The notes below the pieces were generated by a model. The model was not told where the DNA came from and ran no database searches. It was given only the letters and a program-made list of their open reading frames with translations. From NCBI GenBank assembly GCA_012271015.1, contig JAAXHD010000123.1, positions 32,138-96,137 on the forward strand: a stretch of 64,000 nt of DNA, in the 5' to 3' direction. The position numbers and the translations under genes are program-made. Source of the stretch: Candidatus Poribacteria bacterium. Its GTDB lineage: Bacteria > Poribacteria > WGA-4E > WGA-3G. Positions 744 through 64,000 of this stretch are shown in pieces. Each line of letters opens with the position of its first letter. Position 1 is the first letter of the stretch.

Positions 744-929
744 AATTATTTCTATGGGCGAAAGCGGATCAAAAAACCCTTGCTCCTCAAAGAGAGGTGG
801 AAACCGTTATGAGTCGTGCTTTGAACCAATTCATCATGTTTTTCTATGATCTCCATGCCCATGGAAAATTGTCGCGCGCGGAATTGCTGCGGGTTAAAGC
901 ACGTCCGGTAAGACCTCCCATCAAGCGGG

Positions 930-2622
930 GTTGAAATAAGAAGATTCTCGATTACGAGATTGAAACCATAGTCCTTTGCAGGTGCCGCCAACCCCCCAAC
1001 TCAGTTGAAATAAGAAGATTCTCGATTACGAGATTGAAACTCCGTGCGTGTTACTTCCGATGTCTGACCCGCGGCATTGTTGAAATAAGAAGATTCTCGA
1101 TTACGAGATTGAAACTGGGTCTGTGAACGTGGGGCCTCGGTCACCCTCGCGTTGAAATAAGAAGATTCTCGATTACGAGATTGAAACCTGCAGTAATCCT
1201 GCCATCCAGTCGAGGTGTCTTGGTTGAAATAAGAAGATTCTCGATTACGAGATTGAAACTGGTAATGGTAAATTAGGTTTAGTCGCAAGGTCTGGTGGGT
1301 TGAAATAAGAAGATTCTCGATTACGAGATTGAAACTTATAGGTATGACGCATCCTCTGGTGGTTGGGACTTTGGTTGAAATAAGAAGATTCTCGATTACG
1401 AGATTGAAACTTCGGTCATAAGGGTGTATCCAGATGGGATGCCCGCTATGAGAGTTGAAATAAGAAGATTCTCGATTACGAGATTGAAACTAAGTTATAC
1501 TATCCACACATTAACTTTTCTCTTTGGGTTGAAATAAGAAGATTCTCGATTACGAGATTGAAACTGTTCCTGGTGCCCGGCACGCAGGTCAGTCGCGACG
1601 GGTGGGGTTGAAATAAGAAGATTCTCGATTACGAGATTGAAACCTTGTGTGAGTCCGCCGCCACCGCCGCCACCGCCCGGTTGAAATAAGAAGATTCTCG
1701 ATTACGAGATTGAAACCTGCTACCATTGTAACGCCTTCTACGGTTGCCGAGAGTTGAAATAAGAAGATTCTCGATTACGAGATTGAAACTTTTTCAGCGA
1801 AATTCGCAGCAGCCGCCTCTTTAGTATTAGTTGAAATAAGAAGATTCTCGATTACGAGATTGAAACATACATTGAAGTGTAGAACCATCCTCAAACTCAA
1901 AGAGTTGAAATAAGAAGATTCTCGATTACGAGATTGAAACATACGTCAATGTGATGTTATCGCCCGCAGTCACCAAGTTGAAATAAGAAGATTCTCGATT
2001 ACGAGATTGAAACTTCTGGAGGCTCTGTTTCTGGAGGCTCTGCAAGCACGTTGAAATAAGAAGATTCTCGATTACGAGATTGAAACGGGGGTGACGGTGT
2101 AGACACAGTTGACTCTGGTAACGGTTGAAATAAGAAGATTCTCGATTACGAGATTGAAACTCCAGAAATGGTGTTATTGAATGGACACCTCGCGGGAATG
2201 TTGAAATAAGAAGATTCTCGATTACGAGATTGAAACCGATCAGGGTTGTTATCCGTATTGCAGACTAATCCTTTATAGATATGTTGAAATAAGAAGATTC
2301 TCGATTACGAGATTGAAACCTAAAATTAATGAGGGGTGGGGGTTGAAGATTCTCCGTGCCGTTGAAATAAGAAGATTCTCGATTACGAGATTGAAACGAG
2401 AGACAACCTTCCCAACCCGTTTTCGGCAATGCTGTTGAAATAAGAAGATTCTCGATTACGAGATTAAAACGTGCGACCCGAAGATCGCACCTACCTCTCC
2501 ATTTCTAAGTTGAAATAAGAAGATTCTCGATTACGAGATTGAAACATTCTATTTATCAACGTCCTGGTGGTAGATGTGAATGTCCGTTGAAATAAGAAGA
2601 TTCTCGATTACGAGATTGAAGT
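930..2622 (+). CRISPR. CRISPR array with 23 repeats of 37 bp (GTTGAAATAAGAAGATTCTCGATTACGAGATTGAAAC) and 22 spacers of 35-41 bp
   Basis: Direct enumeration of repeats at 930, 1004, 1079, 1151, 1223, 1299, 1374, 1454, 1528, 1607, 1680, 1753, 1840, 1904, 1977, 2050, 2124, 2210, 2283, 2361, 2434, 2509 and 2586. The repeat ends in ATTGAAAC, a type I-B / type III-like 8-nt handle. There is an internal variant at 2434 (..GAGATTAAAAC) and a degenerate terminal repeat at 2586 (..GATTGAAG). The leader (744..929) is on the cas2 side and the degenerate repeat is distal, consistent with transcription on the + strand. Confidence 0.95.
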
Positions 2623-2859
2623 TAACACAATATCATCAAAAAGCAGGTAATTCTAAAATCTACCATAGTTGCGTTCGGAGATGTACAACCATAGGGGTCA
2701 ATTTAGAATTTTCACGGCAGATAGGAGAAACTCTACAAATACCGCCCCTATGGGGCTTAGGTCTAGTGGGTGCCGCTTTTCTACAGAGATATCGTCCCTA
2801 CAGGACTGAAGAAGGGTTTTGGGTAGGCACGGTTTGGATCTAAGACTGGGGCGGTTAGG

Positions 2860-3111: not shown

Positions 3112-3266
3112 CGGAGATGCACAACCTAACAGGTTATGCTACAAAGATAATAACTTGCGTTAAAACAGCAACGAAAACGTAGTCCGTAACGCAGTAGAGG
3201 ACGGCTCCAACGCGAAAATCTTGAAGTTTCAAACCACGTTACTTCTCCGCAAGGAATAATTAAAAA

Positions 3267-4148
3267 ATGAAAATACTTATAACCGGCGCGAGCGGTAGGC
3301 TCGGTGAGTTTGTAATCCGAGAATTGGTGTCAGATCACGCATTAGTGCTGATGTCACGCAGAACACCACCCGCTGAATTCTCGCACCTCCCATTCATCCA
3401 AGGCGATCTGAATACCTTTGAGGACTGCCAGCGTGCTGTTGAAGGTGTGGACGCTATCCAACATCTCGGTGCACAACCCGGTCCCGTCGATCATCCAGAT
3501 TTACGTGCCCGCGCCGCTGAGCAGGGGATCCCCTTCGACGCAACCTTCAAAACGAACATGCTTGGCACTTACTACCTCATGCAAGCCGCAATTGAAGCAG
3601 ATGTCCACACGGTTGTGATGTCCGGAAGCAATTGCGCCTTAGGACACGGCTTTCGGATTAGCAAAACCCACATTCCAGTAGACTACCTCCCTATAGATGA
3701 AGAACACCCGTGCTATCCTGAAGACTCCTATAGTTTCTCTAAACGGTGTGGCGAGGATTTGTTGGCAAGTTACACCCGCGCTTATGGCATCCGAACCTAC
3801 GTTACACGTCCTGCGGGTATCAGCCCAGAAGAACGGAGAAAACAGATGGCGGAAAATGCTAAACCGACAACGGCTTGGACACCGTGGCTCTGGTGTTGGG
3901 TTGGGAGCGAAGATGTCGCAAGTGCACACCGCCTGATTATGGAAAAAGCGGATACGTTACCCGCGCACGATGTCTACTTTTTGAACGCCGACGACACTTC
4001 AGCCTTGGAACCTTCTCAAGAGTTAGTCGAGCGTTTTAAACCCGAATTTCTTCTGAAGGTGAGAACGCTTGAAGGACATCAATCGTTTATTACTTGCGAT
4101 AAACTGAAAAACGCCGTCGGATGGCAACACAAAACATCGTGGCGATAA
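3267..4148 (+). CDS. NAD-dependent epimerase/dehydratase (extended SDR family)
   Basis: N-terminal Rossmann motif ITGASGRLG and catalytic YxxxK (YSFSK). It is preceded by the conserved leader CCGCAAGGAATAATTAAAAAATG. Confidence 0.7.
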   Translation: MKILITGASGRLGEFVIRELVSDHALVLMSRRTPPAEFSHLPFIQGDLNTFEDCQRAVEGVDAIQHLGAQPGPVDHPDLRARAAEQGIPFDATFKTNMLGTYYLMQAAIEADVHTVVMSGSNCALGHGFRISKTHIPVDYLPIDEEHPCYPEDSYSFSKRCGEDLLASYTRAYGIRTYVTRPAGISPEERRKQMAENAKPTTAWTPWLWCWVGSEDVASAHRLIMEKADTLPAHDVYFLNADDTSALEPSQELVERFKPEFLLKVRTLEGHQSFITCDKLKNAVGWQHKTSWR

Positions 4149-4592
4149 TTTCTAATTTTGCTTGCGCGCAGTCAAGGCTATTCGGTAAGAATCTCTTCTT
4201 GTTGGTGCCGCACGCGCCGTTGTTGCGTGCTACGATCTTTGGCTTTTAGAGGAAATATCTTTCTAATTTTGCTTGCGCGCAGTCAAGGCTATTCGGCAAG
4301 AATCTCTTCTTGTTGGTGCCGCACGCGCCGTTGTTGTGTGCTACGATCTTTGGCTTTTAGAGGAAATATCTTTCTAATTTTGCTTGCGCGCAGTCAAGGC
4401 TATTCGGTAAGAATCTCTTCTTGTTGGTGCCGCACGCGCCGTTGTTGCGTGCTACGATCTTTGGCTTTTAGAGGAAATATCTTTCTAATTTTGCTTGCGC
4501 GCAGTCAAGGCTATTCGGCAAGAATCTCTTCTTGTTGGTGCCGCACGCGCCGTTGTTGCGTGCTACGATCTTTGGCTTTTGGAGGAAATATT
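4149..4592. repeat. Four tandem copies of a 111-bp unit in the 5' leader of the downstream oxidoreductase gene
   Basis: Units start at 4149, 4261, 4372 and 4483 (tttctaattttgcttgcgcgcagtcaaggctattcggtaagaatctcttcttgttggtgccgcacgcgccgttgttgcgtgctacgatctttggcttttagaggaaatatc). Each contains the hairpin GCACGC-N9-GCGTGC and ends in an SD-like GAGGAAATAT. Only the last copy is followed by ATG (4593). Confidence 0.9.
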
Positions 4593-5675
4593 ATGTCAAA
4601 CAGTGACAGAGTACGCATCGGTGTTGTCGGTGTCGGGAGTATCTCCGTGCGCGGTATCCTGCCACACCTCACGCAAGACGATGTCCAAGATAGATTACAG
4701 GTAACGGCTGTCTGTGACCCTGTTCCCGGTAGAGCACAAGCGGCCTCTGAAAAATTTAACGTTCCGTATGCGTACGAAACTTATGAAGCCCTCTTAGCAG
4801 ACGGACATGTAGATGCAGTCAGCATCGCATCGCCTATCGGATTGCATTACGAACAGGGAAAACTCGCCATTGAACACGGTCTCCACGCACATTTCAACAA
4901 GACGATGACAACGACTGTCAATGAAGCGGACGCTCTGATCGAATCGGCGGCGCGTAAAGGTGTAAAATTAGTGGCTTCCCCTGGAGAGATGCTCCGTCCG
5001 ATCCATCAAGAAATTCGCAGTCTTATTGCTGACGGTGCTATCGGAACGTTGACATGGGCAGCTGCTGGTTCCGCCTTTGGAAGATACCACGAAAACGAAT
5101 CCGTTAGACATGGTGACGATCCCCTCTCCAATATCAATCCTGCATGGTATTTCCGCAAACCGGGTGGTGGACCTCTCTATGATATGACTGTCTACGGCTT
5201 GCATACACTGACGGGTATCCTCGGACCTGCGAAACGTGTAACGGCGTTCTCCGGTGTTCGCCTCAAGGAACGCGAATTTCGAGGCGAGATGCTTCCGTGC
5301 GACATGGATGATAACACCTTCATTCTCCTTGACTTCGGCGAAGCATTTTACGGCTTTGTCTACGGTGCTGCTGCCGGTTCTGTCGTCAGAGGTAGGCTGG
5401 CAATTCACGGCACCAATGGCACGATTGAAGGCAACTTGCTGAATGGTAAACCCATTGATGCCCCAGACGGGGAGCTCCCACACGTTGTGGGACCGCATCG
5501 TAGCATCCAAGAATCGCACGTTTATGAGGACATTATGCAGTTGATGGATTGGATTCGCGAGGGTAAACCGACGATTGTCACAGCGGAGCATGCCCGGCAT
5601 GTCATAGAGATCTTCGATGCGGGGTACCGATCCGCGCAAACGGGACAGGCACAAGAGTTACGCACCACATTTTGA
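4593..5675 (+). CDS. Gfo/Idh/MocA family oxidoreductase
   Basis: MSNSDRVRIGVVGVGSISVRG.. is an N-terminal Rossmann fold typical of Gfo/Idh/MocA. GGAGG lies 8 nt upstream of ATG 4593. The upstream part of the 4158 ORF is a translation of the tandem repeat and was rejected. Confidence 0.75.
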   Translation: MSNSDRVRIGVVGVGSISVRGILPHLTQDDVQDRLQVTAVCDPVPGRAQAASEKFNVPYAYETYEALLADGHVDAVSIASPIGLHYEQGKLAIEHGLHAHFNKTMTTTVNEADALIESAARKGVKLVASPGEMLRPIHQEIRSLIADGAIGTLTWAAAGSAFGRYHENESVRHGDDPLSNINPAWYFRKPGGGPLYDMTVYGLHTLTGILGPAKRVTAFSGVRLKEREFRGEMLPCDMDDNTFILLDFGEAFYGFVYGAAAGSVVRGRLAIHGTNGTIEGNLLNGKPIDAPDGELPHVVGPHRSIQESHVYEDIMQLMDWIREGKPTIVTAEHARHVIEIFDAGYRSAQTGQAQELRTTF

Positions 5676-5689
5676 AGGAACAATCCACT

Positions 5690-6640
5690 ATGCCAAAAGC
5701 TTTATGTATCGGTGAACTCCTTATCGACTTTGTCTCCACGACACCTGATGTGACACTCGCCGAAGCCCCAGGATTTGTTAAAGCCCCAGGGGGTGCCCCT
5801 GCGAACGTTGCTGTCGGCTTAGCGAAACTCGGTATGGATGCCGGGTTTATCGGTAAAGTGGGGTCAGATGCGTTCGGAGATTTCCTTCGTGAAACACTCC
5901 AACAAAACAGTGTTAATACCGACTATCTCATCGCAGGTGAAGGGACACGGACGACCTTAGCCTTCGTTGCCACCCGCTCTGACGGTATGAAGGACATCAC
6001 CTTCTATCGACATCCAGGTGCCGACATCCAGCTCGCCGCTGATGAAATCAATACCGATTATATCCAATCGGCGGACTTATTTCACTACGGCTCTGTCAGT
6101 CTTAGCCATTCGCCGAGTCGAGAAGCGACCCTTCACGCAATCCAGGCTGCAAAAGCGGGGGGTGCTATGCTCTCCTACGACCCGAATTTGCGGTTGATGC
6201 TCTGGGATAACGCCAACGATGCCAAGCACTGGATCTGGGAAGTGATACCTTATGCAGATATCGTGAAAATTTCGGAAGAGGAGTGGGAATTCATCACGGA
6301 CGAGGTCGAATTGGCAAATGGAATTGATCGCATTCTTGGACTCGGTGCGAAACTGCTCGTTGTCACGTTAGGCGAACGCGGGTGTTATTACACGAACGGT
6401 TCCGCTGAAGGTTACGTTGATGGTTTTGAAGTTGATGTCGTGGATACACTTGGGGCAGGGGATGCATTCGTCGCGGCGATGCTCACCCAACTGATGCCGC
6501 ATGCAGACCTTACATCGCTCGAAAGTGACCAACTTAACACTATTATGCGATATGCAAACGCCGCAGGAGCGTTGGCAACTCAAAAAGTTGGCGTAATTCC
6601 TGCGTTACCGACTCTTCCCGATATTGAACATTTTCTATAA
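5690..6640 (+). CDS. PfkB-family carbohydrate kinase (fructokinase/ribokinase-like)
   Basis: Contains the GG motif region and the C-terminal DTLGAGDAF anion-hole motif. ATG 5690 has GAAGGAA upstream. The ORF track starts at TTG 5672, overlapping the previous stop codon. Confidence 0.7.
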   Translation: MPKALCIGELLIDFVSTTPDVTLAEAPGFVKAPGGAPANVAVGLAKLGMDAGFIGKVGSDAFGDFLRETLQQNSVNTDYLIAGEGTRTTLAFVATRSDGMKDITFYRHPGADIQLAADEINTDYIQSADLFHYGSVSLSHSPSREATLHAIQAAKAGGAMLSYDPNLRLMLWDNANDAKHWIWEVIPYADIVKISEEEWEFITDEVELANGIDRILGLGAKLLVVTLGERGCYYTNGSAEGYVDGFEVDVVDTLGAGDAFVAAMLTQLMPHADLTSLESDQLNTIMRYANAAGALATQKVGVIPALPTLPDIEHFL

Positions 6641-19701: not shown

Positions 19702-20002
19702 ACTCTTATGTAGAGTCTCTCATAAATCCTGGCTCAGCAGGGAAGCCGCCGAAGCCCATACGCGTGTCGCCCCGCTGGGCTTAGAGATCTGTGGTCAACA
19801 CGCAGCTACACATCTGTCGCCCCGCTGGGGCTTAGGGAGGGGTTAGAAACACCGTATAGAAGAGAAAGCGGAACGCCTAATGCCAAAAACTTTACATACT
19901 CAGTAAAAACTTTTTGCTTGACAGAATCTGCAATAAGTGCTAACATAATTAAATGTTTTTTTTGTCGGAGATACACCAAAAACGGAGAGTTTCCTAAGTA
20001 CA

Positions 20003-27298: not shown

Positions 27299-27665
27299 TA
27301 GCGAAACTATGGTAGATTTCAGAATTATGGTGGATTTTAGAATTACCTGGACATTCTGCATCGGCGAGGTTAGGAAACCTCGCCTACCCGGGGATGAAAG
27401 TGTCCATGTATTTTCAGCATTTACCATAATTGGACCCTTTCAAATAGTGTGAATGCCTCCAACAGGCATTCACACTAGAAACCCAAACTAAAAGTTTATG
27501 CTACAAAGATGTCTACTTATTTATAGGTTTTACCATAGTAATAATCTGAAGGGTTTTGCATAGGTAGTGATATAGCACAGCTTTCATGATTGAGAAGCTG
27601 CGTCTTTAACGACTTGAGTTTTCATTAGGCCTTAGTAATACCCTTATAACTTGTATGGAGAAACA

Positions 27666-30702: not shown

Positions 30703-30839
30703 CATACTATTAGGGCATTTATAGCAGATTTTAGTAGAATTTGGACACTCTCAAAGAAGTTCTCCAAGGCTCACCTTAGCGTTCCTTCACGTCGCACAGA
30801 CTCACAGTCTATGCTACAATTCTCTCACATTCATCCGCA

Positions 30840-34852: not shown

Positions 34853-35030
34853 GAAGGTTTATGGTAAAATATATAATTACCTATACATCAGAAGATTGGC
34901 GAGGTTAGGAAACCTCACCAGCGAAGTGGTGGGTTTTCGCTTCTATTGAAATGTAAACCTATTTTCATAATTCACCATAGTTACACGAAAACTTCTTTAC
35001 CAAAAGCCGATGGCTGACTGCCGACTGCCA

Positions 35031-35849
35031 TTAAAAGGGATTCGGTACGGTAGTGAAATTCCGGTACCGGTCTTCGCCGCGCAGTAGAATCGGTTTCCAA
35101 GGACGCTTCAGCGAATTTTCCTCTGCCTGCTTTACCGATGGATCTATGTAGCGAATCGTCAGACCACATCTCCGACGTGTAGAATGATTCGGTAGGCTAC
35201 CGTGGATCATCTGTCCGTGGTGGATGGACATTTCACCGGCTTTCAGCACCAAATCTACGGCGGTTTCTGCTTCTGCTTCGGTGACGGGTACCTCTTGATT
35301 GATGCTCAGCAGGTTGCCTGCCTGGTCGGATGTCCCGTGTTCCTTGATGCCACGCTGATGGCTTCCCGGGATTACCTGCATACAGCCGTTCCCTGTATCG
35401 CTGTCGTCTATGGCATACCAAGCAGTAATCGCATCCGGTGGTTCAAGTCCCCAATACGTCACGTCTTGATGCCATGCCACGAACTTGTCGCGGGGACCGT
35501 ACTTGCAGAAGAAATGCGTAGCTAACAGCATCACATCGGGACCGATAAGTGCCTCGATGACATCTACAATTTTCGGATGCGTCGCGAGTTCCCAGATAAA
35601 TTGATAATCGAAATGCCAATCGACAAGACCAATTTCACATTTCTCTGCACCGACTTCCGCTTCCAATGCATCATAGGCTTGCCGATGGCGCGTTGCTTCA
35701 ACTTCACCGGAAACATGGATACCGGTCAAGAATCCGTCTTTTCGGTAATTTTCAGCAAGTTTTTTGGTTATACCTTGCGGTTCGGTAAAGGGGGTTTGTG
35801 CACTCACGGTTACCTCCGTATATCCGGAAGCTTGCATTGGCGGAACCAT
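35031..35849 (-). CDS. Phytanoyl-CoA dioxygenase (PhyH) family protein. The true start is probably just downstream of the in-frame conserved element at 35762-35790.
   Basis: PhyH-like core (..DGFLTGIHVSG.., HxD..H facial-triad context). The N-terminal 30 residues include the translated element TEPQGITKK. Confidence 0.6.
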   Translation of the reverse strand: MVPPMQASGYTEVTVSAQTPFTEPQGITKKLAENYRKDGFLTGIHVSGEVEATRHRQAYDALEAEVGAEKCEIGLVDWHFDYQFIWELATHPKIVDVIEALIGPDVMLLATHFFCKYGPRDKFVAWHQDVTYWGLEPPDAITAWYAIDDSDTGNGCMQVIPGSHQRGIKEHGTSDQAGNLLSINQEVPVTEAEAETAVDLVLKAGEMSIHHGQMIHGSLPNHSTRRRCGLTIRYIDPSVKQAEENSLKRPWKPILLRGEDRYRNFTTVPNPF

Positions 35850-36724
35850 TGTGAATCTTCCGGTGGCGATTCTTCTGGAGTTTTCATCGTCTCAAAGGTT
35901 TTCAAAGCGGGTGATACGGTTTCTGTCCATATCTGTTCGACTTCTTGAAAAGTTACAGGTTGGCGTTCGGTAATATTCTGTTGTTCGTAAGCCGTTAGCA
36001 ATTCCCGCATCTTGTTTCCGAGCCATGCGACTTCATCATCTACCATACGTTCACCGATACGTCGGTCTGATTCAAAGGCATTCGCCCCCATCGCAAAATG
36101 CGGTCCCTGTGTGTCCGCCGCAGGCATCCGCGACATGTCAACACAGTCTGGTTCCAACGCCCATAGCAATGAAGTCTCAACTCTACCGGCGTGGTCTCCA
36201 CCGTCACCCTGCTGACTGAACCCCGGTGTGTTTGCCTCAAAATCGGGAAGCCCATAGAGCCGCATCGCGAAGTGGGGTTGAATTAGAGATAGGAGGGTCT
36301 TAAGGTCCTGCCAATTCGGACCGTAGTGCCCTGTGAGGCAAATAGCGGCGTGGAATCCGAGGGCATCGGCGGCACGAACATGGTAGCAGACGTTTTTGAA
36401 GTGCTGCCATGCTGGCATAGCGGTGAGCCAACTGCGGACTTCTCCGACACTCCGATATGCCCAGTTCGCATACATACCGTGTTCGTGGATATGCCAATAG
36501 TCGGGAGGTGCAACGATACCACCGTGGGTTTGCGCTGCACGACAAGCGATCGCATGTGCTTTAAGCGCATCCAACCCTACAGTGTTCTGCGGACCATGTG
36601 GTTCGCAGAGTCCATAAGTGAAATAAACAGCGGGACAGTCGTTGAATGCGGCTTCCAATTGATCCGGGAACATCCGTTCCCAACGCACCTCTTTTTGCAT
36701 TCGTATTTCCTCTTGGATAATCAT
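35810..36724 (-). CDS. Creatininase-family amidohydrolase
   Basis: GLCEPHGPQNTVGLD resembles the creatininase E-x-HG-P..D metal-binding motif. Confidence 0.45.
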   Translation of the reverse strand: MIIQEEIRMQKEVRWERMFPDQLEAAFNDCPAVYFTYGLCEPHGPQNTVGLDALKAHAIACRAAQTHGGIVAPPDYWHIHEHGMYANWAYRSVGEVRSWLTAMPAWQHFKNVCYHVRAADALGFHAAICLTGHYGPNWQDLKTLLSLIQPHFAMRLYGLPDFEANTPGFSQQGDGGDHAGRVETSLLWALEPDCVDMSRMPAADTQGPHFAMGANAFESDRRIGERMVDDEVAWLGNKMRELLTAYEQQNITERQPVTFQEVEQIWTETVSPALKTFETMKTPEESPPEDSQWFRQCKLPDIRR

Positions 36725-37848: not shown

Positions 37849-40800
37849 CTACAATACCTCACGTAAAAAGCGCGCAGTGTGGGATTCCTGCACCGAGGCG
37901 ACTTCCTCTGGTGTCCCCATGGCAACGACTTCTCCGCCGCCTTTGCTTCCTTCAGGTCCCAAGTCGATGATCCAGTCGGCAGACTTGATAACGTCGATGT
38001 TATGTTCGACAGCGATAATCGTGTTGCCCGCATCAACGAGTCGGTTCAGTACCTTGAGGAGTTTCTGGATGTCGTCAAAGTGGAGCCCTGTCGTCGGCTC
38101 ATCCATGATATAGAGCGTTGAACCGGTTTGGCGACGTGCCAATTCTTTCGCAAGTTTGACGCGCTGCGCCTCACCACCGGAGAGGGTCGTCGCGGATTGT
38201 CCCAATTCTATATAACCGAGTCCAACATCTGTTAACATCTGAAGCGTCCGACAGATGCGTGGACTTTCACTGAAGAATGCGAGTGCTTCGTCCACTGTCA
38301 TCGCTAAGACTTCAGCAATATTTTTGTCCTTGTAACGGATTTCAAGGGTTTCCATACTATAACCGGTGCTATTACACGTCTCACACGGCATCCACACATC
38401 AGGAAGGAAATGCATCTCAATGCGATTGAAACGGTGCCCCTCACAAACATGACACTGCCCCTGTGCGAGGTTGAAACTGAATGTGCCCATACTATACCCA
38501 CGCATCTTCGCATCATGTTGCTCAGCGAAGAGTTCACGGATTTTCGTAAACAGGTCGGTATAAGTTGCTGGATTGGAACGCGGCGTCTCTCCGATCGCCT
38601 TCTGGTCTACATTGATGAGACGTTTGATATGGCTAACACCGCGGATGGTTTCATATTCCGGTAGACCATAGTCGTTATATATCGGTTCTCGGTGACCATC
38701 GCTGAAATAATGGGTATAACGACGGTCCTTGGGATCACCAGTTTTGATAGAACTACGACTTTCAAGAGCGGGTTTTAGTGTGCCTTCAACGAGCGAACTC
38801 TTTCCGCACCCTGAGACACCAGTGACACAGGTGAGTGTCCCAAGTGGAATCTCAACATCAATGTCTTTGAGATTATTCGTTTTCGCCCCGAATATTGTTA
38901 ATTGTTTTCCTATGCCTTCGCGCCGAGTGCTGGGAACAAGAATCTCCACTTCATTAGAAAGATAGGCTTGCGTCAAAGATTTTTTAATTTTACCTTGCGG
39001 GGACCTTTCGGGGGTTTGTGCTTTGACGTGCTTTTCTGTAGAGTCGCCCTCCACTTCGTTACGGGCTATCGGTTGCGTGCTAATCACTGATTGCTGATCG
39101 CTGACCGCTGATCGCTGAAATGTATCCGGCGTACCGATAGCGACAATCTCACCACCTCCCTTGCCTGCTTGGGGACCGAAGTCGATTACATGATCGGAGG
39201 CTAATATTGTATCGCGGTCGTGTTCAACGACGAGGACGCTGTTCCCAATATCGCGGAGTTCCTTGAGTGCCGCAATGAGGCGTTCTTGGTCGCGCGGGTG
39301 TAAGCCGATACTCGGTTCGTCAAGAATATAGGTTACACCGGTGAGACCGCTACCGAGTTGGCTCGCGAGCTGGATTCTGCGCATTTCGCCACCGGAAAGC
39401 GTTGGTGCTCCGCGGTCTAACGCCAGATAACCGAGCCCAATATCTTCCAAGAACTGGAGCCGCGTCCGGATTTGGTGTAGGACTTCGGCTTCAAATTCAG
39501 GTGAAGTATGAATGTGAAGTGACGGATGCGTCGCTCTTGAGGTTGACACGCCTGTTGCGATCAGGAAATCGTTCCTATCAGTCTCCGCGTCAGCCGAAAC
39601 GACCGCCGCTTCGATTCGATTTAACTGTGTGTCGAAGAACTCAATAATTTCGGTAATTGACAATGCCATCAATTCAGAGACAGTTACATTCTCAAATCTG
39701 ACACAACTTGGAAAGGGTTTCAGTCGTGTGCCGTGGCATTGTTTGCACGCCTCGTATGGTGGGTGCATGTTTCTTCCGCGTCCATCACAGAAATCGCAAG
39801 CCCCTATTTTGTTGTTAAAGGAGAAGTGGCGTGGTGTCAATTGCCCAAAATTGTTGCCGCAAGAACGACACATCGCGTGTTCACTAAAGAAATGTCGTTC
39901 CGTTGTTTGTCCGCGTTCTATTTTTTCTATGAGTACGAACCCACCACTTTGTAGGAGTGCTAACTCCACGGCTTCCGTAAAACGACTTTTTTCCTCGTCT
40001 ACAAGTTCGACGCGGTCGATGACGATAAAGATTTCATGGTGAATGCCCCTACTCAACTTCGGCGTTTCATCAAGTCGGTGAATCTCACCGTCAATTTGAA
40101 CCCGTACAAATCCTGCTCTTTGCAATCGACGAAATACATCAGCGTAATCCTCGTTCCCTTTCAAACCGTACGCTGACTCACTTGCATTTACATCAACAAT
40201 TTTACCCCTTGACACGCCTTCTTTACCTTCCGGAAGCAGCAAGAAGTTCGTGAGCGGTGCGAGGACATCCACCCGCTGTTCGCGGAGGATTTCAAAAACC
40301 TGCTCCGTTATTTCTTCCGCTGTCTGTGGCTGTACCTCCTTTTGGCAATCTGGACAGTAGGGCTTACCCCATCTGGCATAAAGTGTACGGAGTCCATCGT
40401 GTATCTCCGTAATCGTCGCGACAGTGGATCTTGGGTTTTGCCCAGCATTGGCGTGCGAAATAGCAATCGCGGGCGAGAGTCCCTCAATTTTTGAGACTTT
40501 GGGCTTTTCCATCTGCCCTATAAACTGACGCGCATAAGTGCTGAGTGTTTCAATATAACGACGCTGTCCTTCGGCATAAACAGTATCCAGTGCAAGCGAT
40601 GTCTTACCCGAACCGCTCACCCCAGTCAACGCGGTCATCTTTCGGTGCGGAATATCGATGTCAATATCTTTCAGATTATTTTCTGTAGCTCCTCGCACAA
40701 CAATGTTTTTAATTTTTCTTTGCGGTTCGTTCAAGTGAATTGGTCGTTCCACGCTCCGTTCCGTACATCCGCACCCCACTTCGTTACAGGCTACGATTTC

Positions 40801-43758
40801 GTCGGATTCTGCAATTATACCTTGTGGTTCATTCGGATCGGAAGAAGAGCAGATATCGAAATCCCCGCGAAGTGCCCGACCGGTGTAAGATTCCGGCATG
40901 TCCGCGATCTGTTCAGGTGTCCCCACGGCAACGATAGTACCGCCATCAATACCGCCCTCAGGTCCCAAATCAATGAGATAATCTGCGGAGTTAACGACTT
41001 CCAGATTATGTTCAACGACGACGACCGTATTGCCATCGTCTACGAGTCTATGAAGTATCGTCAACAGTTTATTTACATCGTCAAAGTGCAAACCGGTTGT
41101 GGGTTCGTCGAGGATATAGAGCGTTTTACCGGTGCCGCGTTTGGAAAGTTCCCGCGAAAGTTTGATACGTTGTGCTTCGCCACCTGAGAGCGTGGGGGCG
41201 GGTTGTCCGAGTTTAATGTAATCCAAACCGACATCATGGAGCAGTTTCAACCCTCTTGCGATCCTCGGAATATCGGCGAAATGTGCAAGTGCAGTCTCAA
41301 TATCCATTTCAAGGACTTCAGAGATGTTCTTCTCCTTGTATTTAATGGCGAGGGTTTCGCTATTGAAGCGTTTTCCCTCACACACCTCACACTCCACCCA
41401 GACATCAGAGAGGAGTCCCATATCGACTTTTTTTGCACCGTTCCCGCTACAGGCTTCACATCTACCACCAGAGACGTTGAAACTAAACCGTCCGGGTTTA
41501 TAGCCTCGCAATTTGGCATCGGGCAACCCCGCATAGAGTGCGCGAATATTGTCGAAGACTTTTGTGTATGTCGCTGCGTTGGAACGCGGTGTGCGTCCGA
41601 TAGGTGCCATGTCGATGTTGATAATTTTGTCTATGACATCGGAGACCGGAACGCTTTTCCCTTCAATGATGCCCCGAATATCGTCATAATCCCCCGGCAC
41701 AGTCTTCGCTTTCATGAGGTCGCGGGCGAGTGCTTTGTAGAGAATATCGTGAATTAAGGAACTCTTTCCAGAACCACTCACACCCGTTACACAGCAGAGC
41801 GTACCCATAGGTACTTTAGGACTGATACCTTGGAGATTGTTCTGGCGTGCGTTGCAGATTTGTATCCACCTATCTCCTGTTGGTCGGCGGGATTCGGGTT
41901 GAACGATCACCTGATCGCCTCGGAGATATTGGGCAGTGAGTGTATTGCTCTCCTTCATGAACTGTGCGGGTGTACCGATATCCGTTATATTCCCGCCCTT
42001 AATGCCAGCACCGGGACCGAAATCGACGATAAGATCAGCCACCAACATCGTTGCTTCATCGTGCTCAACGACGATAACGGTGTTGCCTTGATTCCGCAAG
42101 TTTAAGAGGGTCATGAGCAAACCGGCGTGGTCGCGTGGATGTAAACCGATGCTGGGTTCATCAAGAACATAGGTGACATCTCGTAACCCTGCTCCTACCT
42201 GACTCGCAAGGCGAATGCGCTGTGCTTCACCACCGGAAAGGGTCGGTGCGGGACGTGCAAGCGTCAGATACCCCAACCCTACGTCCATAAGGAATCCGAG
42301 TCGTCCTCGAATTTCTTTTAAGAGTTCTGACGCGATGAGCGTCTCGCGCTCTGGAAGTTCCAACTCGCCGAAGAATTGGGTGGCATCCTGAATAGACATC
42401 TCAAGAATGTCCGTTATAGAGGTATCGCCTATCGTCACGGCTTTTACCCATGGGGTAAGTCGGGTTCCTTCACATGTCCTGCAGGGCATTTTGACAAAAT
42501 AGTCCGGGAAGGTGTCTTCATCGGTTTCCTCGTCATCCTCAAAGCGATACTTCTGCTCTTCAGTTGGAATGATGCCGTGAAAACGGGCGCGATATTGCCG
42601 TCGTTGCTTTCGCCCTCTGTGTCTACCTGTACTGGGGGTGGTAATCGTAAGAATATCGTCCCCGGTGCCGTAGAGAATGGCATGTTGCTGTTCCGGTGTG
42701 AGGTCTTTCCAAGGTGTCTCAATATCGAATCCGAGGTGTTTTGCGAGTGCCTCAGCGATTACCTTTTCCTTGAGAGTATTTCGCGTATCAAGAGGTCCCC
42801 ATAGACTTATGGCACCTTGCATGATGGAAAGCGTCTCATCTGGCACGATCAACCTTGGCAAGATTCCCATTTCCACGCCTAAACCGCGACAATTCTCACA
42901 CATTCCATCAGGGTTGTTGAAAGAGAAGTGGCGTGGTTCTGGTTTCACGAAACTGATCCGGCAGTGCGCGCAGGTATAATCCTCGCTAAACAGCAGGTCG
43001 TCGTCCTCCGTCGCGAATGGAGATCCTTCGCCTTCAGTGGGAACAACGTGGACAAGGAGGCTTCCATCTCCACGCATGAGGGCAGTAGATACGGCTTGCG
43101 CAACACGAGGTTCAACTCCCTCCTTGATAACAATCCGGTCAATGACAACATCAATGTCGTGACGTTGATTGGGATTCAAGGTGAGACCGGGTCGGAGTTC
43201 GTATATTTCACCATCGATTCGCAACCTCGCGAAACCCGCTTTGCGTAAATCTTCAAGTTCTCTTTGGTGTGCGCCGCGGGAGCCTCTGATAATCGGTGCT
43301 AAAATGATAAGTCTGGTGCGCTCTGGATAGTCGATCAGAGCTTGGACGATATCTGCGGCAGTTTGTGAACCGACCTCACGCCCGCATTCGGGACAGTGGA
43401 ATTGCCCTGCGCGGGCATAGAGGACACGGAGGTAGTCGTAGACTTCTGTTACGGTTGCCACTGTGGAACGCGGGTTATGTCCCGTTGATCCCTGATCAAT
43501 GGCAATAGAAGGAGACAATCCGACAATTTCGTCTACATCTGGCTTGCCGAGTTGCCCTAAAAACTGCCGGGCGTACGCCGATAAAGACTCGATGTATCGG
43601 CGTTGTCCTTCGGCGTAAACGGTATCAATCGCCATCGAAGATTTGCCGGAACCGCTCACACCGGTGAAGACGATGAGTTTGTCTTTTGGAAGTTGGATAT
43701 CAATGTTTCTGAGATTGTGCTCGCGTGCACCTTGTACAAGAATCGACTCTTCTGTCAT
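37849..43758 (-). CDS. uvrA: Uninterrupted 1969-codon ORF containing two complete UvrA (excinuclease ABC subunit A) units in tandem. UvrA unit 1 is about 43758..40750. UvrA unit 2 is about 40699..37849 and is itself interrupted in frame at 38975-39120.
   Basis: Four ABC ATPase modules (Walker [33 protein letters not shown]; signature LSGGEAQRI x3 and LSGGEMRRI). UvrA zinc-finger cysteines. C-terminus ..[12 protein letters not shown]. The junctions carry the conserved repeat element (see findings). Confidence 0.85.
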
Positions 43759-43853
43759 TTTTTAATTATTCCTTGCGGTTCGGTCAGAGGGATTAAGACA
43801 TTCTTGTTTCTTTGCGTATATCTGCCTGCGCCGGTGTTGCAGGCTACAATTTC
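43759..43853 (-). promoter_or_regulatory. Full copy of the recurrent conserved element (motif B hairpin plus motif A ..CTGACCGAACCGCAAGGAATAATTAAAAA) abutting the uvrA ATG
   Basis: See findings. The same roughly 95-nt bipartite element is at 47304..47396, 40706..40840 and 38980..39072. Motif A alone is at 63902..63940, 3246..3266 and 35762..35790. Confidence 0.6.
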
Positions 43854-43986
43854 GGTTTAGTGTTTTTGCTTGGGTGTTTCCCCAGGAATCGGAGTTCCTT
43901 CCTACCGAGAAACCTGTACGTCATGGAATAGAGTGCAGTCCAGGTAACGGAAGAATTAAAAACCTATTTTTTGTTACAGGACGCAG

Positions 43987-45683: not shown

Positions 45684-46118
45684 GGTGCCACCTCGTCACT
45701 ATTTTTTTGGACTACGCGACAAAATTATACCACATCTCACAGTTAGATAACAATTTGTTTTTCAGTGAAAGTAGGAATGGATTAGAATCCGACTCTATAG
45801 CAACGCTGTCCTCTGTGATGTTTGAACGAATTATATGCCCCAATTTTCCCCATAGGTGAGTTAGGATTCTACAACCATAGCCGTCAATTTAGGGTTTTTC
45901 ACGGTATTTGGTAGCACCGTCTTTACAAATGCCGCCCCGCTGGAGCTTGGGTCTTTGAGTTAACATATGCTACACAAATGCCGCCCCGATGGGGCTAAAT
46001 CGGATAAATCGCGAGCCGGAGCTCGCTCCTACAGGGTGTAGCACCGTCTTTACAAATGCCGCCCCGCTGGGGCTTTAGATACACCCAACATTCTAATAGG
46101 GACTCTATCTTAATTGAC

Positions 46119-47399
46119 TTATAAGGCAGTACCCAATTCTTTCGCGATAGTGTAGACATCTTTGTCCCCGCGACCTGAAAGGCAGACAGCAATAATTTGA
46201 TTTTTACCAAGTTTAGGTGCAAGCTCACGCAGATAGGCAATGGCATGTGCGGATTCTAATGCGGGGATGATCCCCTCCGTCTCTGATAGCAATCGGAATC
46301 CCTCTACCGCCTCTGCATCGGTAATCGGCACGTATTCCGCTCTACCGGTTTCACGATAATAACTGTGTTCCGGTCCGACACCCGGATAATCTAATCCTGC
46401 AGAGATCGAGTGTGCGGGGGTTATCTGACCGTCATCCTCTTGCAACAGATAGCACTTCGCACCGTGAAAGACACCAACACTACCCGCAGTGAGAGGTGCG
46501 GCGTGTCGTCCGCTACGAATGCTGTCACCTGCGGCTTCTACACCGATAAGCCGAACAGATTGATCGGCATAGAAGGGATAGAACATACCGAGTGAATTAC
46601 TCCCACCCCCGACACAGGCGACGACACAATCAGGTAAAGTCCCTGCCGCCTCTAAAATCTGTGCTCTCGCTTCGGCACCGATGACGGATTGGAAGTCTCG
46701 AACGATCATTGGGTAAGGGTGTGCGCCGACAACCGAGCCGAGAAGCAGATAGGTGGTTCGGACATTCGTGACCCAATCTCGGAAGCAGGCGTTGATCGCA
46801 TCCTTGAGCGTCCGCGACCCAGAGTTAACCGGTACGACCTTTGTGCCCATCAATTGCATGCGGAAAACGTTGAGTGCCTGCCGTTCTATGTCTTCCTCAC
46901 CCATATACACTTCGCATTCCATACCGAACTTTGCGGCGACAGTGGCTGTTGCGACGCCGTGTTGTCCAGCACCGGTCTCGGCAATGATGCGTTTTTTGCC
47001 CATCCACCGCGCGAGGAGGATTTGACCGATTGCGCTGTTAATTTTGTGAGCACCTGTATGGTTGAGGTCTTCCCGTTTGAGATATATTTTTGCGCCACCG
47101 AGTGTTTCTGTTAAATGCTCGGCGTAATAGAGTGGGTTTGGTCGCCCGACATACTCACGGAGGTAGTACTGAAACTCTTGCTGGAATTCGGGATTGTCCT
47201 TGAGTTTCATGTACGCTTCTTCGAGTTCTAAAAGGGCGGGCATGAGTGTTTCGGGGACGTATCTGCCTCCGAATTGTCCGAAATGTCCTGTCGCATCAGG
47301 AAGTTTTTTAATTATACCTTGCGGTTCGTTTAGATGGACCTGGGATTGCATATTCATCTCCGTATATCTGCCTGCGCCGTTGTTGCAGGCGACAATCAT
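46119..47399 (-). CDS. trpB: Tryptophan synthase beta chain. The N-terminus is uncertain because the conserved element is in frame at codons about 20-32.
   Basis: ..[19 protein letters not shown].., the PLP lysine region ..[12 protein letters not shown].., and GGGSN. The first 32 codons ([32 protein letters not shown]) are a translation of the repeat element. Alternative ATG codons lie at 47357 and 47351. Confidence 0.85.
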
Positions 47400-57105: not shown

Positions 57106-57702
57106 TCAATTTTGATTGCGTGCGTTTATTTCCATCAGTTTTTCGCGAGCCAATATTTCAAAGACCGGCATCACTCTTTCGACGAGTTCGTCGTATCGTC
57201 CAGACAAGCGATCATGTGCTGTCTGTAGAGCTTTTAGTTCGCTTGTAACCGCATCTAACGCGGCGCGGAGGGTTGCATTTCCTTCCTGAAGCGTGTTATG
57301 CTGATCCAGCAGGATACTCTGGGATTCCTGAAGCGCGTTATGCTGATCCAGCAAGGAATTATATCTCCGATCAGCCGTGCTTTGGAAAGTTATAAGTTCC
57401 TGCTGTAGGGTGCTGTGCTGTCCTTGGAGGCTTTCATGTTCTTGCTGTAGGGTGCTGTGCTGTCCTTGGAGGCTTTCATGTTCTCGCTGCAGCGTGATGT
57501 GTTCCTGTCGTAGGCTTTCATGTTCTCGCTGCAGCGTGATGTGTTCCTGCTGCAGGGCGTTGCATCGCTTATCTAATTCCTCAGAGAGTGCTGTGTATCG
57601 ATCGACCTGGTTTTTCAACCACCATAAGCCGATAATACTGATACTCAGCACACCCATGTCTATTAAGCTGATAGTTGCCCAACTGAATTCTAAGAGTCCC
57701 AT
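57106..57702 (-). CDS. Membrane-anchored coiled-coil protein with tandem 17/18-residue repeats
   Basis: N-terminal TM segment, then HITLQREHESLRQE x2 and HSTLQQEHESLQGQ x2, encoded by nucleotide tandem repeats at about 57400-57560. Confidence 0.45.
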   Translation of the reverse strand: MGLLEFSWATISLIDMGVLSISIIGLWWLKNQVDRYTALSEELDKRCNALQQEHITLQREHESLRQEHITLQREHESLQGQHSTLQQEHESLQGQHSTLQQELITFQSTADRRYNSLLDQHNALQESQSILLDQHNTLQEGNATLRAALDAVTSELKALQTAHDRLSGRYDELVERVMPVFEILAREKLMEINARNQN

Positions 57703-63076: not shown

Positions 63077-63901
63077 TTATGCCTCCTTAATTGCGTCGCG
63101 GTCGGCGGTTGCCCACTCTTCCCAGCGTTCTTCATCGGAACGGAGGAAACCGGAATTGCACCGGGGTTGAAGCTGCTCGTCCACACCGAGGAGTCGCATG
63201 TGTTGATGATTATTGGCGGCTTTCGCAGTCTCCAACAACTCTTGGGTATGTGGACCGGTGTGATGATCGGTGTGTTTTAGCCATGTGAGGTTATAATAGA
63301 TGCTAAAAAAATAACGTAAATTTCCAGAAGTGTTCGGGGTGCCGGAGTGGATCAGTCCGTTATGTGTGATGACAACATCACCGGCTCCCATGTGAACCAA
63401 TGTTTCGTCGGGATGCGGGACACTTCGTTGTGAATCTTCCAAGGTAATCGGTTTGCGATGCGAACCGACAATGACACGGAGGGGTCCGTATTCATCCGTT
63501 AAATCCTGTAGATAGGATATAGCGTTGATGGCGTTCGGGCGATGATAGGCATCAGTAAAAGGAACGTGTGCCCAGCGATCACGGTGCCACCCTGAGACTC
63601 TGCCTTCCGCTTTTTCCGCTTCCATGGATGGAAAGGCGGCAAGCGTGAGGTTATCTAATTGCACGAAGGGCCCCATCACTCTTTCTACAAATTCAAGGAT
63701 TGTTGGATGTGAGACAGCGGGCCACATCAGTTCAGGTGCCAATTCAAGCGTATTTCCGAACCATGTTTGACCGTCGTTGGCGGCAGAGAGTTCTTGATGT
63801 TTCTCTCGCCAATTTTGCATTTGCGGTTCGTCAAAGACTTTCTCAAAGATTGTGAAACCATCGGTTCTATAGGCTTCAAAGTGTTCGTCAAGCGTTGCCA
63901 T
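63077..63901 (-). CDS. Phytanoyl-CoA dioxygenase (PhyH) family protein
   Basis: ..YRTDGFTIFEKVFDEPQM.. and GWHRD. It is preceded immediately by the conserved leader element. Confidence 0.6.
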   Translation of the reverse strand: MATLDEHFEAYRTDGFTIFEKVFDEPQMQNWREKHQELSAANDGQTWFGNTLELAPELMWPAVSHPTILEFVERVMGPFVQLDNLTLAAFPSMEAEKAEGRVSGWHRDRWAHVPFTDAYHRPNAINAISYLQDLTDEYGPLRVIVGSHRKPITLEDSQRSVPHPDETLVHMGAGDVVITHNGLIHSGTPNTSGNLRYFFSIYYNLTWLKHTDHHTGPHTQELLETAKAANNHQHMRLLGVDEQLQPRCNSGFLRSDEERWEEWATADRDAIKEA

Positions 63902-64000
63902 CTTTTAATTATTCCTTGCGGTTCGGTCAGGCGGATTAGATATTCAACACGTTTCTCCGTAGACCTAAAGAAACACCCCGCTGAATGCCACACGCGCATT

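Follow-up and report, generated by a model that had tools for sequence, protein, structure and literature searches.

The described systems closest to the repeat treated here are the GTAG-tagged REPs and BIMEs (Di Nocera et al., 2013, PMC3733652; Nunvar et al., 2010, PMC2817692). They combine an unpaired terminal GTAG tag (variants GYAG, GTRG) with a stem-loop whose short G+C-rich stem has 5-13 bp, show complementary stem changes between sub-families, reach high copy numbers and are reiterated in clusters with flanking segments, the hairpin standing in a mosaic with other motifs. BIMEs form regularly spaced mosaics of alternating orientation. GTAG-tagged REPs are extragenic and lie mostly downstream of genes, often as inverted dimers (REPIN-like HH/TT pairs), and go with a cognate RAYT (Y1/HUH) transposase gene that has the repeats on its flanks (PMC3733652; PMC2817692); they have intragenic copies as well, with inserts inside uvrA of Opitutus and Thioalkalivibrio (PMC3733652). 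Other small repeats are associated with coding sequence more directly. MIRUs (mycobacterial interspersed repetitive units), as summarised in PMC12548453, are short, often tandem repeats between co-oriented genes that are inserted at start codons, and a repeat-internal ORF may terminate at an ATGA overlapping the start of the gene. The Rickettsia RPE and the enterobacterial RU/ERIC are small, in-frame intragenic repeats which add peptides in linkers or termini (PMC3733652; PMC2759123), and putative mobile promoters, or promoter reuse, have been described from highly similar upstream regions before non-homologous genes of one genome (PMC3575422).

The repeat of this study was encountered in a window of 64 kb, the whole stretch of DNA that was analysed, at the 5' end of a PhyH-family dioxygenase gene. 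A 30-mer referred to as motif A, ACCGAACCGCAAGGTATAACCAAAAAACTT, has an exact match at 35757-35786 on the minus strand. The original prediction had placed its translation, TEPQGITKKL, at codons about 21-30 near the N-terminus of the PhyH ORF; this is borne out, the peptide occupying codons 22-31 of the longest ORF, 35031..35849. In the family alignment, motif A at PhyH differs from the consensus ..ATAATTAAAAAA in having CC instead of TT.

The recurrence of motif A in the window is not due to chance. A near-copy of the 30-mer with 3 mismatches is found at 47301-47330, where dinucleotide-preserving shuffles lead to an expectation of 0.00, and a degenerate 24-mer matches 6 times in the window against 0.00 expected. 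A repeat search of the window placed six 65-nt copies in one group (family D5), and an nhmmer profile, built from related copies, recovered 7 strong copies and 1 partial copy:

3177..3269, plus strand: copy of the ..TTCTCCGCAAGG subfamily that immediately precedes the gene for an NAD-dependent epimerase (ATG 3267); nhmmer E 4.6e-16.
About 35758..35826, minus strand: 5'-truncated element copy at PhyH, from CGGATATACGGAGG to AAAAAA; nhmmer profile positions 28-96, E 1.5e-14.
38978..39068, minus strand: in-frame element copy inside the uvrA ORF, within the segment that links the two ABC halves of the second UvrA module; nhmmer E 6.1e-14.
40705..40797, minus strand: in-frame element copy at the junction of two UvrA modules; nhmmer E 6.2e-18.
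40813-40841, minus strand: partial motif A inside the uvrA ORF; nhmmer E 0.006.
43756..43850, minus strand: full element copy immediately preceding the uvrA ATG (..AAAAAATG; ATG 43758); nhmmer E 2.4e-22.
47302..47395, minus strand: full element copy fused in frame to trpB (putative start ATG after GGAG; ORF 46119..47399); nhmmer E 1.1e-21.
63899..63965, minus strand: element copy immediately preceding a second PhyH paralogue (ATG 63901), its 5' part missing where the window ends or where a motif-B-type insert interrupts it; nhmmer E 2.6e-15.

PhyH had been counted as the fifth gene whose 5' end carries motif A, and the count is correct: the genes are those for the epimerase, PhyH, uvrA, trpB and the second PhyH paralogue. 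Besides these five gene 5' ends, three further copies lie inside the 1969-aa uvrA ORF.

Motif A is the 3' block of a repeat of about 95 nt. In a full copy the G(T/C)AG-tagged hairpin comes first, a middle region of variable sequence next and ACCGAACCGCAAGGWATAATTAAAAAA last, and an alignment of 43 copies defines the ~95-nt unit as (A)CGTAGCCTGCAACAACGGCGCAGGCGGATATACGGAAAGGCACGT-variable-AACCCACCTSACCGAACCGCAAGGWATAATTAAAAAA[ATG]. The hairpin is followed in order by GGATATACGGARAGG, a variable stretch of ~25 nt and ACCYSACCGAACCGCAAGGWATAATTAAAAAA, with the ATG of the co-oriented gene coming next in roughly half of all copies. The 5' hairpin is G+C-rich and of REP type, GCCTGC-9 nt-GCAGGC with compensatory variants, its stem measuring 4-6 bp and its loop 9-13 nt. 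Columns 5-8 of alignment A1 read G-(T/C)-A-G, with G5, A7 and G8 each at 90% or more, and the last G of this tag can pair with C33 (95%). Covariation of the hairpin, assessed by RNAalifold and explicit pair counts, amounted to 87.5% of cells paired with 24 double-change cells, as high a result occurring in 0 of 500 shuffles, and CG and UA are exchanged at three pairs. RNAalifold retains only the 5' hairpin and an invariant CC-GCAA-GG. Long-range helices (GGCGGAT/ATCCACC), an inner hairpin and CGGAGAGG/CCTCACCG were also tried, and were rejected with pairing or covariation no better than in shuffles or slid controls. Within subfamily 2 (..GTTCCTCCGCAAGG), only some of the copies carry a GAGGAAC/GTTCCTC hairpin. 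At 4038-4702 a 111-nt tandem repeat represents a diverged relative, whose stem GCACGC/GCGTGC is a further compensatory variant.

The element is modular, a GTTTTTGCTTGGGTGTTTC module often being inserted between the hairpin and the ATATACGG block. Arrays run head-to-tail with 2-7 units at periods of about 106-144 nt; 56 of the 208 profile hits hold the 3' part only; and a single hairpin with motif A at most 130 nt downstream accounts for 66 of 80 hairpins, inverted hairpin pairs being occasional only (for example at 6150-6520 of locus L020). In the alignment the two element ends are unrelated to each other, with no terminal inverted repeats.

A conserved hairpin ahead of genes could belong to a structured cis-regulatory RNA leader of riboswitch, thermometer or protein-binding type, which would put many genes under one post-transcriptional regulator and be decayed in the PhyH copy. 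We regard this as unlikely. The hairpin covaries, but it is the one short hairpin with support, three other helices pairing no better than shuffles. Some copies fold well (z -3.8 and -3.3), whereas the z-scores of single-copy folds lie mostly between -1.3 and +1.6, most of these folds being no more stable than shuffles. Rfam returned 0 matches at gathering score over the window and only noise at E about 10 over the uvrA copy; no match was obtained even at E up to 10. The copies are consistently 5' UTR in position and co-oriented with their gene, CCGAACCGCAAGG is conserved beyond the needs of a Shine-Dalgarno (SD) sequence, the hairpin and motif A of the full trpB copy are unchanged in three species (two of these copies having been found via the exact 22-mer described below), and the hairpin-less PhyH copy is decaying. 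However, the genes that carry the element have no relation to one another (uvrA, trpB, proC, PhyH, epimerase and others), and tandem arrays of 2-7 units, the 5'-truncated copies (56/208) and in-frame intragenic copies are traits of a dispersed repeat, not of a regulon leader.

Across genomes, the motif is a lineage-specific dispersed repeat of Poribacteria. The 22-mer GAACCGCAAGGWATAAYYAAAA was scanned in 185,579 species, one genome each, and yielded at least 111 stretches, 108 of those listed coming from Candidatus or uncultured Poribacteria (about 35 MAGs). The window itself is accordingly Poribacterial. Running the profile over 0.88 Mb of these motif-selected loci gave the 208 hits mentioned above. 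Estimates of motif A conservation are biased because the copies were gathered by the exact 22-mer; the CCGAACCGC upstream of AAGGA is about 90% conserved even in 81 non-exact copies. A literature search on Poribacterial repeats found nothing relevant within the library it covered.

Placement of the copies is tied to start codons. An ATG that opens an ORF of at least 60 codons lies at most 5 nt away from 67 of 131 exact copies, 53 of these 67 ending exactly ..AAAAAATG, against a rate of 3.1% for trials at randomly chosen positions of that DNA. The rest read in frame into a long ORF (24/131), are followed by another copy (16/131), precede an ORF start 6-80 nt downstream (10/131) or show some other arrangement (14/131). 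The strand of the repeat is that of the downstream gene, and the upstream neighbour is co-oriented as well in 40 of 42 evaluable cases, usually at a distance of 40-400 nt. Motif A has a sole open frame, GAA CCG CAA GGW ATA ATT AAA AAA, and every fusion uses this TEPQGIIKK frame because the other two frames meet TAA.

Motif A could also be read as a promoter, with (T/A)ATAAT as a -10 box 7 nt before the ATG of leaderless mRNAs. TATAAT or AATAAT does end exactly 6 nt ahead of the ATG's first base in the 53 ..AAAAAATG copies, but a consensus scan of the uvrA copy found no -35 partner and no sigma-70 site, and the putative box is not constant in its first base (A 80 times, T 48 times). Furthermore, 40 of 42 copies stand behind a co-oriented gene, some just 41-69 nt past its stop codon, and at one locus, L117, the stop falls inside the motif. 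Promoter-like TGnTAnAAT boxes occur upstream of the hairpin in several copies, which would make the element itself a transcribed leader, and a leaderless transcript would leave the fused genes, PhyH and trpB, with no start codon. A promoter role is accordingly judged very improbable.

Least probable of all, and barely credible in our estimation, is that the element encodes a short peptide, either as a uORF or leader ..TEPQGIIKK with its stop over the gene ATG, in the manner of MIRU, or as an N-terminal tag. The frame GAA CCG CAA GG. is the only open one of the motif, it ends at a TGA overlapping the ATG (ATGA) in 25 of the 53 ATG-adjacent copies, and the fused genes carry TEPQGIIKK-type residues. 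Yet a start codon at the position used in fused genes is present in just 6 of the 53, and any in-frame start at most 60 nt away in 22/53. The frame stays open for 15 codons upstream in 33/53 copies, compared with 34/53 for another frame, substitutions in the middle region ignore the frame, and the PhyH residues change freely between sister strains (Q25K, T28S). A conserved uORF or peptide was rejected on these start-codon and open-frame counts.

The features of the PhyH locus are as follows:

35031..35807, minus strand: PhyH-family dioxygenase gene in its revised, predicted extent; Pfam PF05721, E 1.3e-27.
35805..35807, minus strand: GTG, candidate PhyH start, with the product MSAQTPFTEPQGITKKLAENYRKDGF.. 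of 258 aa; kept in sister strain L118.
35810..35812, minus strand: TAA, creatininase stop inside the element, between SD and GTG; from the sequence, ORF and orthologue alignment.
35813..35817, minus strand: GGAGG, Shine-Dalgarno-like and supplied by the element, 5 nt upstream of the GTG; kept in L118.
35847..35849, minus strand: ATG of the longest ORF, lying in creatininase C-terminal codons; from the orthologue alignment.
35810..36724, minus strand: creatininase-family gene, given as its longest ORF with the N-terminal start unrefined; Pfam PF02633, E 3.2e-20.

Residues 67-213 of the 258-aa product match PF05721 with 97.9 bits against a cut-off of 22. The synteny DnaJ-creatininase-PhyH-DAO-DUF4403 is conserved in other Poribacteria. 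Close PhyH orthologues were absent from the at least 111 motif-selected loci, which gave paralogues only, and orthologues were fetched by protein search. They measure 249-253 aa with the N-terminus METKNGQLAENYRKDGF, and in the element-free orthologous loci creatininase and PhyH are separated by a gap of 13 nt (7 nt in L117). In the DNA alignment the window and the orthologues part after ..TTCCGGA and agree again from CTTGCTGAA on. Between these points the native 44 nt, ACTCCC TAA GAGAGGACATCAC ATG GCA ACG AAA AAT GGA CAA, have been lost, which removed the final codons of creatininase with their stop as well as the SD, ATG and first seven codons of PhyH. Their replacement is about 63 nt of the element, running from TATACGGAGG to AAAAAA with the hairpin absent. 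The left junction, CCGGA-TATACGG, has only CGGA as shared bases, a 4-nt microhomology, and there is no target-site duplication. A milder state is seen in the L117 orthologue, where only the last ~20 nt of the motif (CTGCAAGGAATAATTAAAACATG) stand ahead of the native ATG and the creatininase stop codon is located within the motif.

Sister strain L118 is 98% identical over the junction region and keeps GGAGGTAACCGTG. Its motif A has 3 substitutions, including the change of the otherwise near-invariant CCGCAAGG to CCGAAAGG. The PhyH body differs between the two strains at 29 synonymous and 8 non-synonymous sites; PhyH is therefore under purifying selection and functional. Over codons 1-30 of the long ORF the counts are 0 and 3, respectively. 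Judged from this strain comparison, the N-terminal extension is unconstrained as protein, and motif A in the hairpin-less copy is decaying.

No ATG, GTG or TTG start codon is found between motif A and the conserved PhyH core. Since no start remains 3' of motif A and the body is under purifying selection, translation probably starts inside the element. The GTG at 35807-35805 is the most probable PhyH start, for a product of 258 aa whose predicted N-terminus is MSAQTPFTEPQGITKK.., motif A then presumably coding for residues 8-17. That the ATG at 35849 is the true start, with a 272-aa PhyH overlapping creatininase by 40 nt, is improbable. The long ORF is open from 35849 and the ATG has a weak GGAAG 7 nt upstream, but GGAGG-5 nt-GTG is a far better initiation site, situated 2 nt past the creatininase stop. 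Gene callers did pick the long start in the sister strain (P0001, 272 aa), whereas the orthologue N-termini read outside this strain pair all begin about 7 residues before LAENYRKDGF. The codons ..SQWFRQCK.. near ATG 35849 are the conserved creatininase C-terminus of element-free loci, and CAATGGTTCCG around the ATG is present in orthologues too, in the creatininase frame and out of frame with PhyH. At this ATG the sole difference from L118 is silent in the creatininase frame and gives M->V in the long PhyH frame. The ATG at 35849 is hence probably spurious as a start.

The original prediction, that the annotated start probably represents a translated 5' leader, stands in part: the extension is leader-derived and the ATG at 35849 probably spurious, but motif A is coding here and the native start has been overwritten. 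As for the suspected overlap of the creatininase gene (35810..36724) with the PhyH start, the 40-nt overlap is an artefact of longest-ORF calling given the GTG start; the genes do not overlap because the stop TAA at 35812-35810 sits 2 nt upstream of the GTG.

The same kind of event has, by sequence comparison, evidently befallen trpB. Its ORF in the window, from 47399, runs through the full element, and a plausible start is the ATG 6 nt after GGAG. Among the top 120 of 8000 TrpB hits, whose taxonomy is mostly unlabelled, almost all relatives start M(N/V/Q)Q(N/D)LPDATG, and the N-terminal extension occurs only in a small clade comprising the window, P0121, L005 and L039. Three orthologous trpB loci have no element and carry GGAG/AAGGAG 6-8 nt before ATG/TTG, which indicates that ordinary Shine-Dalgarno initiation operates in the phylum; native Poribacterial trpB and PhyH together show GGAG, AAGGAG or GAGAGGA 6-8 nt before the start. 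The junction AAAAAA-CTT is identical in both fused window genes, where element-free orthologues read ..GGA(A)CAA-CTT, and net length changes are 2 mod 3 in the three fusion cases seen. proC exists in three states across species, with an ATG after the motif, fused, or with a new ATG just before the motif. In-frame copies in L036 proC and in L019 have no canonical start codon upstream.

Within uvrA the element has become part of the reading frame. One copy and a motif remnant join two complete UvrA modules in the 1969-aa ORF, the alignment of module 2 with solved UvrA beginning at the residue that immediately follows motif A. The copy at 38978..39068 adds about 41 residues, relative to the solved UvrA 2r6f, between GTPDTF and SLTQAYL.

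The explanation we favour, and hold to be somewhat better than even, is that a Poribacteria-specific, REP/BIME-like mosaic repeat with a portable RBS, of which motif A is the 3' block, left a truncated copy that overwrote the PhyH start. The 3' block would form a portable translation-initiation region, an AAGGA SD-like core with an A/U-rich spacer. AAGGA, 11 nt upstream, would be the only candidate RBS for the 53 ATG-abutting genes, and the TAA in two of three frames would halt ribosomes coming from upstream. Copies that land on or replace a native RBS could consequently be tolerated and kept. Where the gene's ATG is lost, initiation inside the element may rescue expression, by way of the open frame and a second purine block, GGAG/GGAGG, followed in some copies by GTG/ATG. 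PhyH would then be translated from the element's GTG, with motif A read as TEPQGITKK in a tolerated N-terminus that is 9 residues longer. The hairpin may serve propagation, as for REP and RAYT, or mRNA stability, by analogy with REP/BIME elements. The AAGGA-to-ATG spacing of 11 nt is longer than the 6-8 nt in the native genes read, and the RBS role leaves the conservation of CCGAACCGC upstream of AAGGA unaccounted for.

A bolder version has the element as an active, orientation-specific mobile translation-start cassette, in which motif A (CCGAACCGCAAGG..) is a site for a recombinase or RNA-binding factor, hundreds of genes per genome share an initiation region, and new N-termini, the double UvrA and in-frame inserts are the products; this is possible but doubtful. 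Two motif scans of about 1 Mb, window and loci combined, found no RAYT/HUH transposase ORFs, RAYTs being single-copy genes. Nor was a convincing autonomous parent, with a gene between hairpin and motif A, found among the 80 hairpins.

Set against the described systems, the Poribacterial element shares with GTAG-tagged REPs the tag and stem-loop, the complementary changes between sub-families, the high copy number, the clusters reiterated with flanking segments, the mosaic context of the hairpin and the intragenic copies, notably in uvrA, here three in the one ORF. It is unlike them in lying upstream of and abutting start codons, and in having, instead of inverted dimers, one lone hairpin joined to a 3' extension of ~65 nt and co-oriented with the downstream gene. 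Compared with BIMEs, the Poribacterial element is clearly a mosaic, of hairpin, optional GTTTTTGCTTGGGTGTTTC module, ATATACGG block and motif A, and its tandem units run head-to-tail and do not alternate. The resemblance to MIRUs, as PMC12548453 describes them, extends to short, often tandem repeats between co-oriented genes at start codons, 53/131 copies abutting the ATG here and 25/53 forming ATGA. Unlike MIRUs, to which it has no sequence relation, the Poribacterial element has its own SD-like core and a REP-type hairpin, and its internal ORF lacks a conserved start (6/53); repeat-ORF coupling is therefore not general in it.

RPE and RU/ERIC likewise insert in frame, whereas intragenic copies are a minority in Poribacteria and the open frame is a by-product, with TAA in the other two. 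Putative mobile promoters resemble the element in their highly similar sequences before non-homologous genes, but the Poribacterial block is without a promoter consensus and equates to a 5' UTR/RBS region, the promoter-like boxes lying outside it. A MITE was ruled out on the element's unrelated ends and the lack of a target-site duplication at PhyH, where 44 nt were replaced. The element is best read as a mosaic repeat of the REP/BIME kind that is associated with start codons and bears an RBS, and it is no confirmed member of a named family.

The element is a clear example of a repeat capturing translation starts, within the known range of bacterial interspersed repeats. In Poribacterial MAGs, longest-ORF calls through the element lead to false N-terminal extensions and false overlaps, as at PhyH (35849) and trpB (47399), and a profile of the element would let such gene calls be corrected systematically. 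More generally, a REP-type repeat family is here tied to start codons, may provide the only candidate RBS for many unrelated genes, and can take over start codons (PhyH, trpB, proC) or turn into a linker within a protein (UvrA). Were motif A truly a factor-recognition site, it would constitute a phylum-wide layer of control on translation starts in these uncultivated sponge symbionts.

Two complete UvrA modules are encoded in one long reading frame, recognised by ORF translation and comparison with solved UvrA, and copies of the element (the ~95-nt Poribacterial interspersed repeat, made up of a hairpin, a variable middle and the 3' block motif A) lie within it and beside it.

37849-43758, minus strand: 1969-aa ORF with both UvrA modules
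38990-39104, minus strand, also in the comparison loci L043 and L072: CAGCAATCAG-type microrepeat before the hairpin (sequence and translation)
43860-43885, minus strand: module GTTTTTGCTTGGGTGTTTC, as the reverse complement GGGAAACACCCAAGCAAAAACAC, upstream of the full element copy that directly precedes the uvrA ATG (sequence)

In the translation, the in-frame join between the two UvrA modules consists of an element copy and a motif-A remnant (40705-40871, minus strand), while the inter-domain linker of module 2 holds a further element insert of ~41 residues (38978-39068, minus strand). Judged from sequence, the arrangement may represent either a real fusion or a second module with its own candidate start, a GTG in ..AAAAACATTGTTGTG. 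The microrepeat, translated ..SAISNQQS.., stands 5' of the hairpin in some element copies, including that inside module 2. Many loci carry module GTTTTTGCTTGGGTGTTTC, frequently as an insertion into the element whose site is constant, in the interval from the hairpin to ATATACGG. In some cases the module itself is tandem.

Tandem arrangements involving the element or a relative of it were also found.

4038-4702, minus strand: 4 to 5 tandem 111-nt units (repeat and profile search)
L020 (another comparison locus) 6150-6520: tandem ~203-nt units (sequence of the locus)

The 111-nt units are related to the element but have diverged from it; they have a GCACGC..GCGTGC hairpin and the 3' block TGACTGCGCGCAAGCAAAATTAGAAAG, and are oriented against the flanking genes, which are on the plus strand. 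The oxidoreductase gene downstream starts at ~4594 with GGAGGAAATATT-ATG, which comes from the opposite strand of the last unit. In the ~203-nt units, two element hairpins belonging to different sub-families point towards one another, and fragments of motif A run both ways, an arrangement closer to a BIME than are the element's usual single-orientation copies.

Repeat search of the window returned further families.

920-2645, plus strand: CRISPR array
2845-2869, 27360-27384 and 34895-34919: second hairpin repeat
2721-2758, 19796-19833 and 45911-46075: third short repeat
57382-57564: tandem 21/42-nt coding-type repeat, TTGGAGGCTTTCATGTTCTTGCTGTAGGGTGCTGTGCTGTCC..
3115-3148, 27477-27510 and 30790-30823: block ..ACAACCTAACAGGTTATGCTACAAAGAT

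In the CRISPR array the 37-nt repeat GTTGAAATAAGAAGATTCTCGATTACGAGATTGAAAC occurs about 23-24 times, with spacers of 35-46 nt. The second hairpin family (GGCGAGGTTAGGAAACCTCGCC in the window, GTAGGTGCGGTTTCCTAACCGCACC in other genomes; many loci) also carries a GTAG tag, and the PhyH stop is closely followed by one of its copies. The third repeat, ..CTACAAATRCCGCCCCNNTGGGGCTT, has a GCCCC/GGGGC hairpin and five copies, three clustered at its last location. The coding-type repeat is unrelated to the element at the PhyH start.

Within the ..ACAACCTAACAGGTTATGCTACAAAGAT block, a TGCTACAAA/TGCTACAAT box looks like an extended -10 by its sequence, and similar boxes, TTGTAGTATAAT, precede element copies in L017, L040 and L098. 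The block copy at 3115 precedes the element's hairpin by ~30 nt, a placement under which the element would be a transcribed leader.
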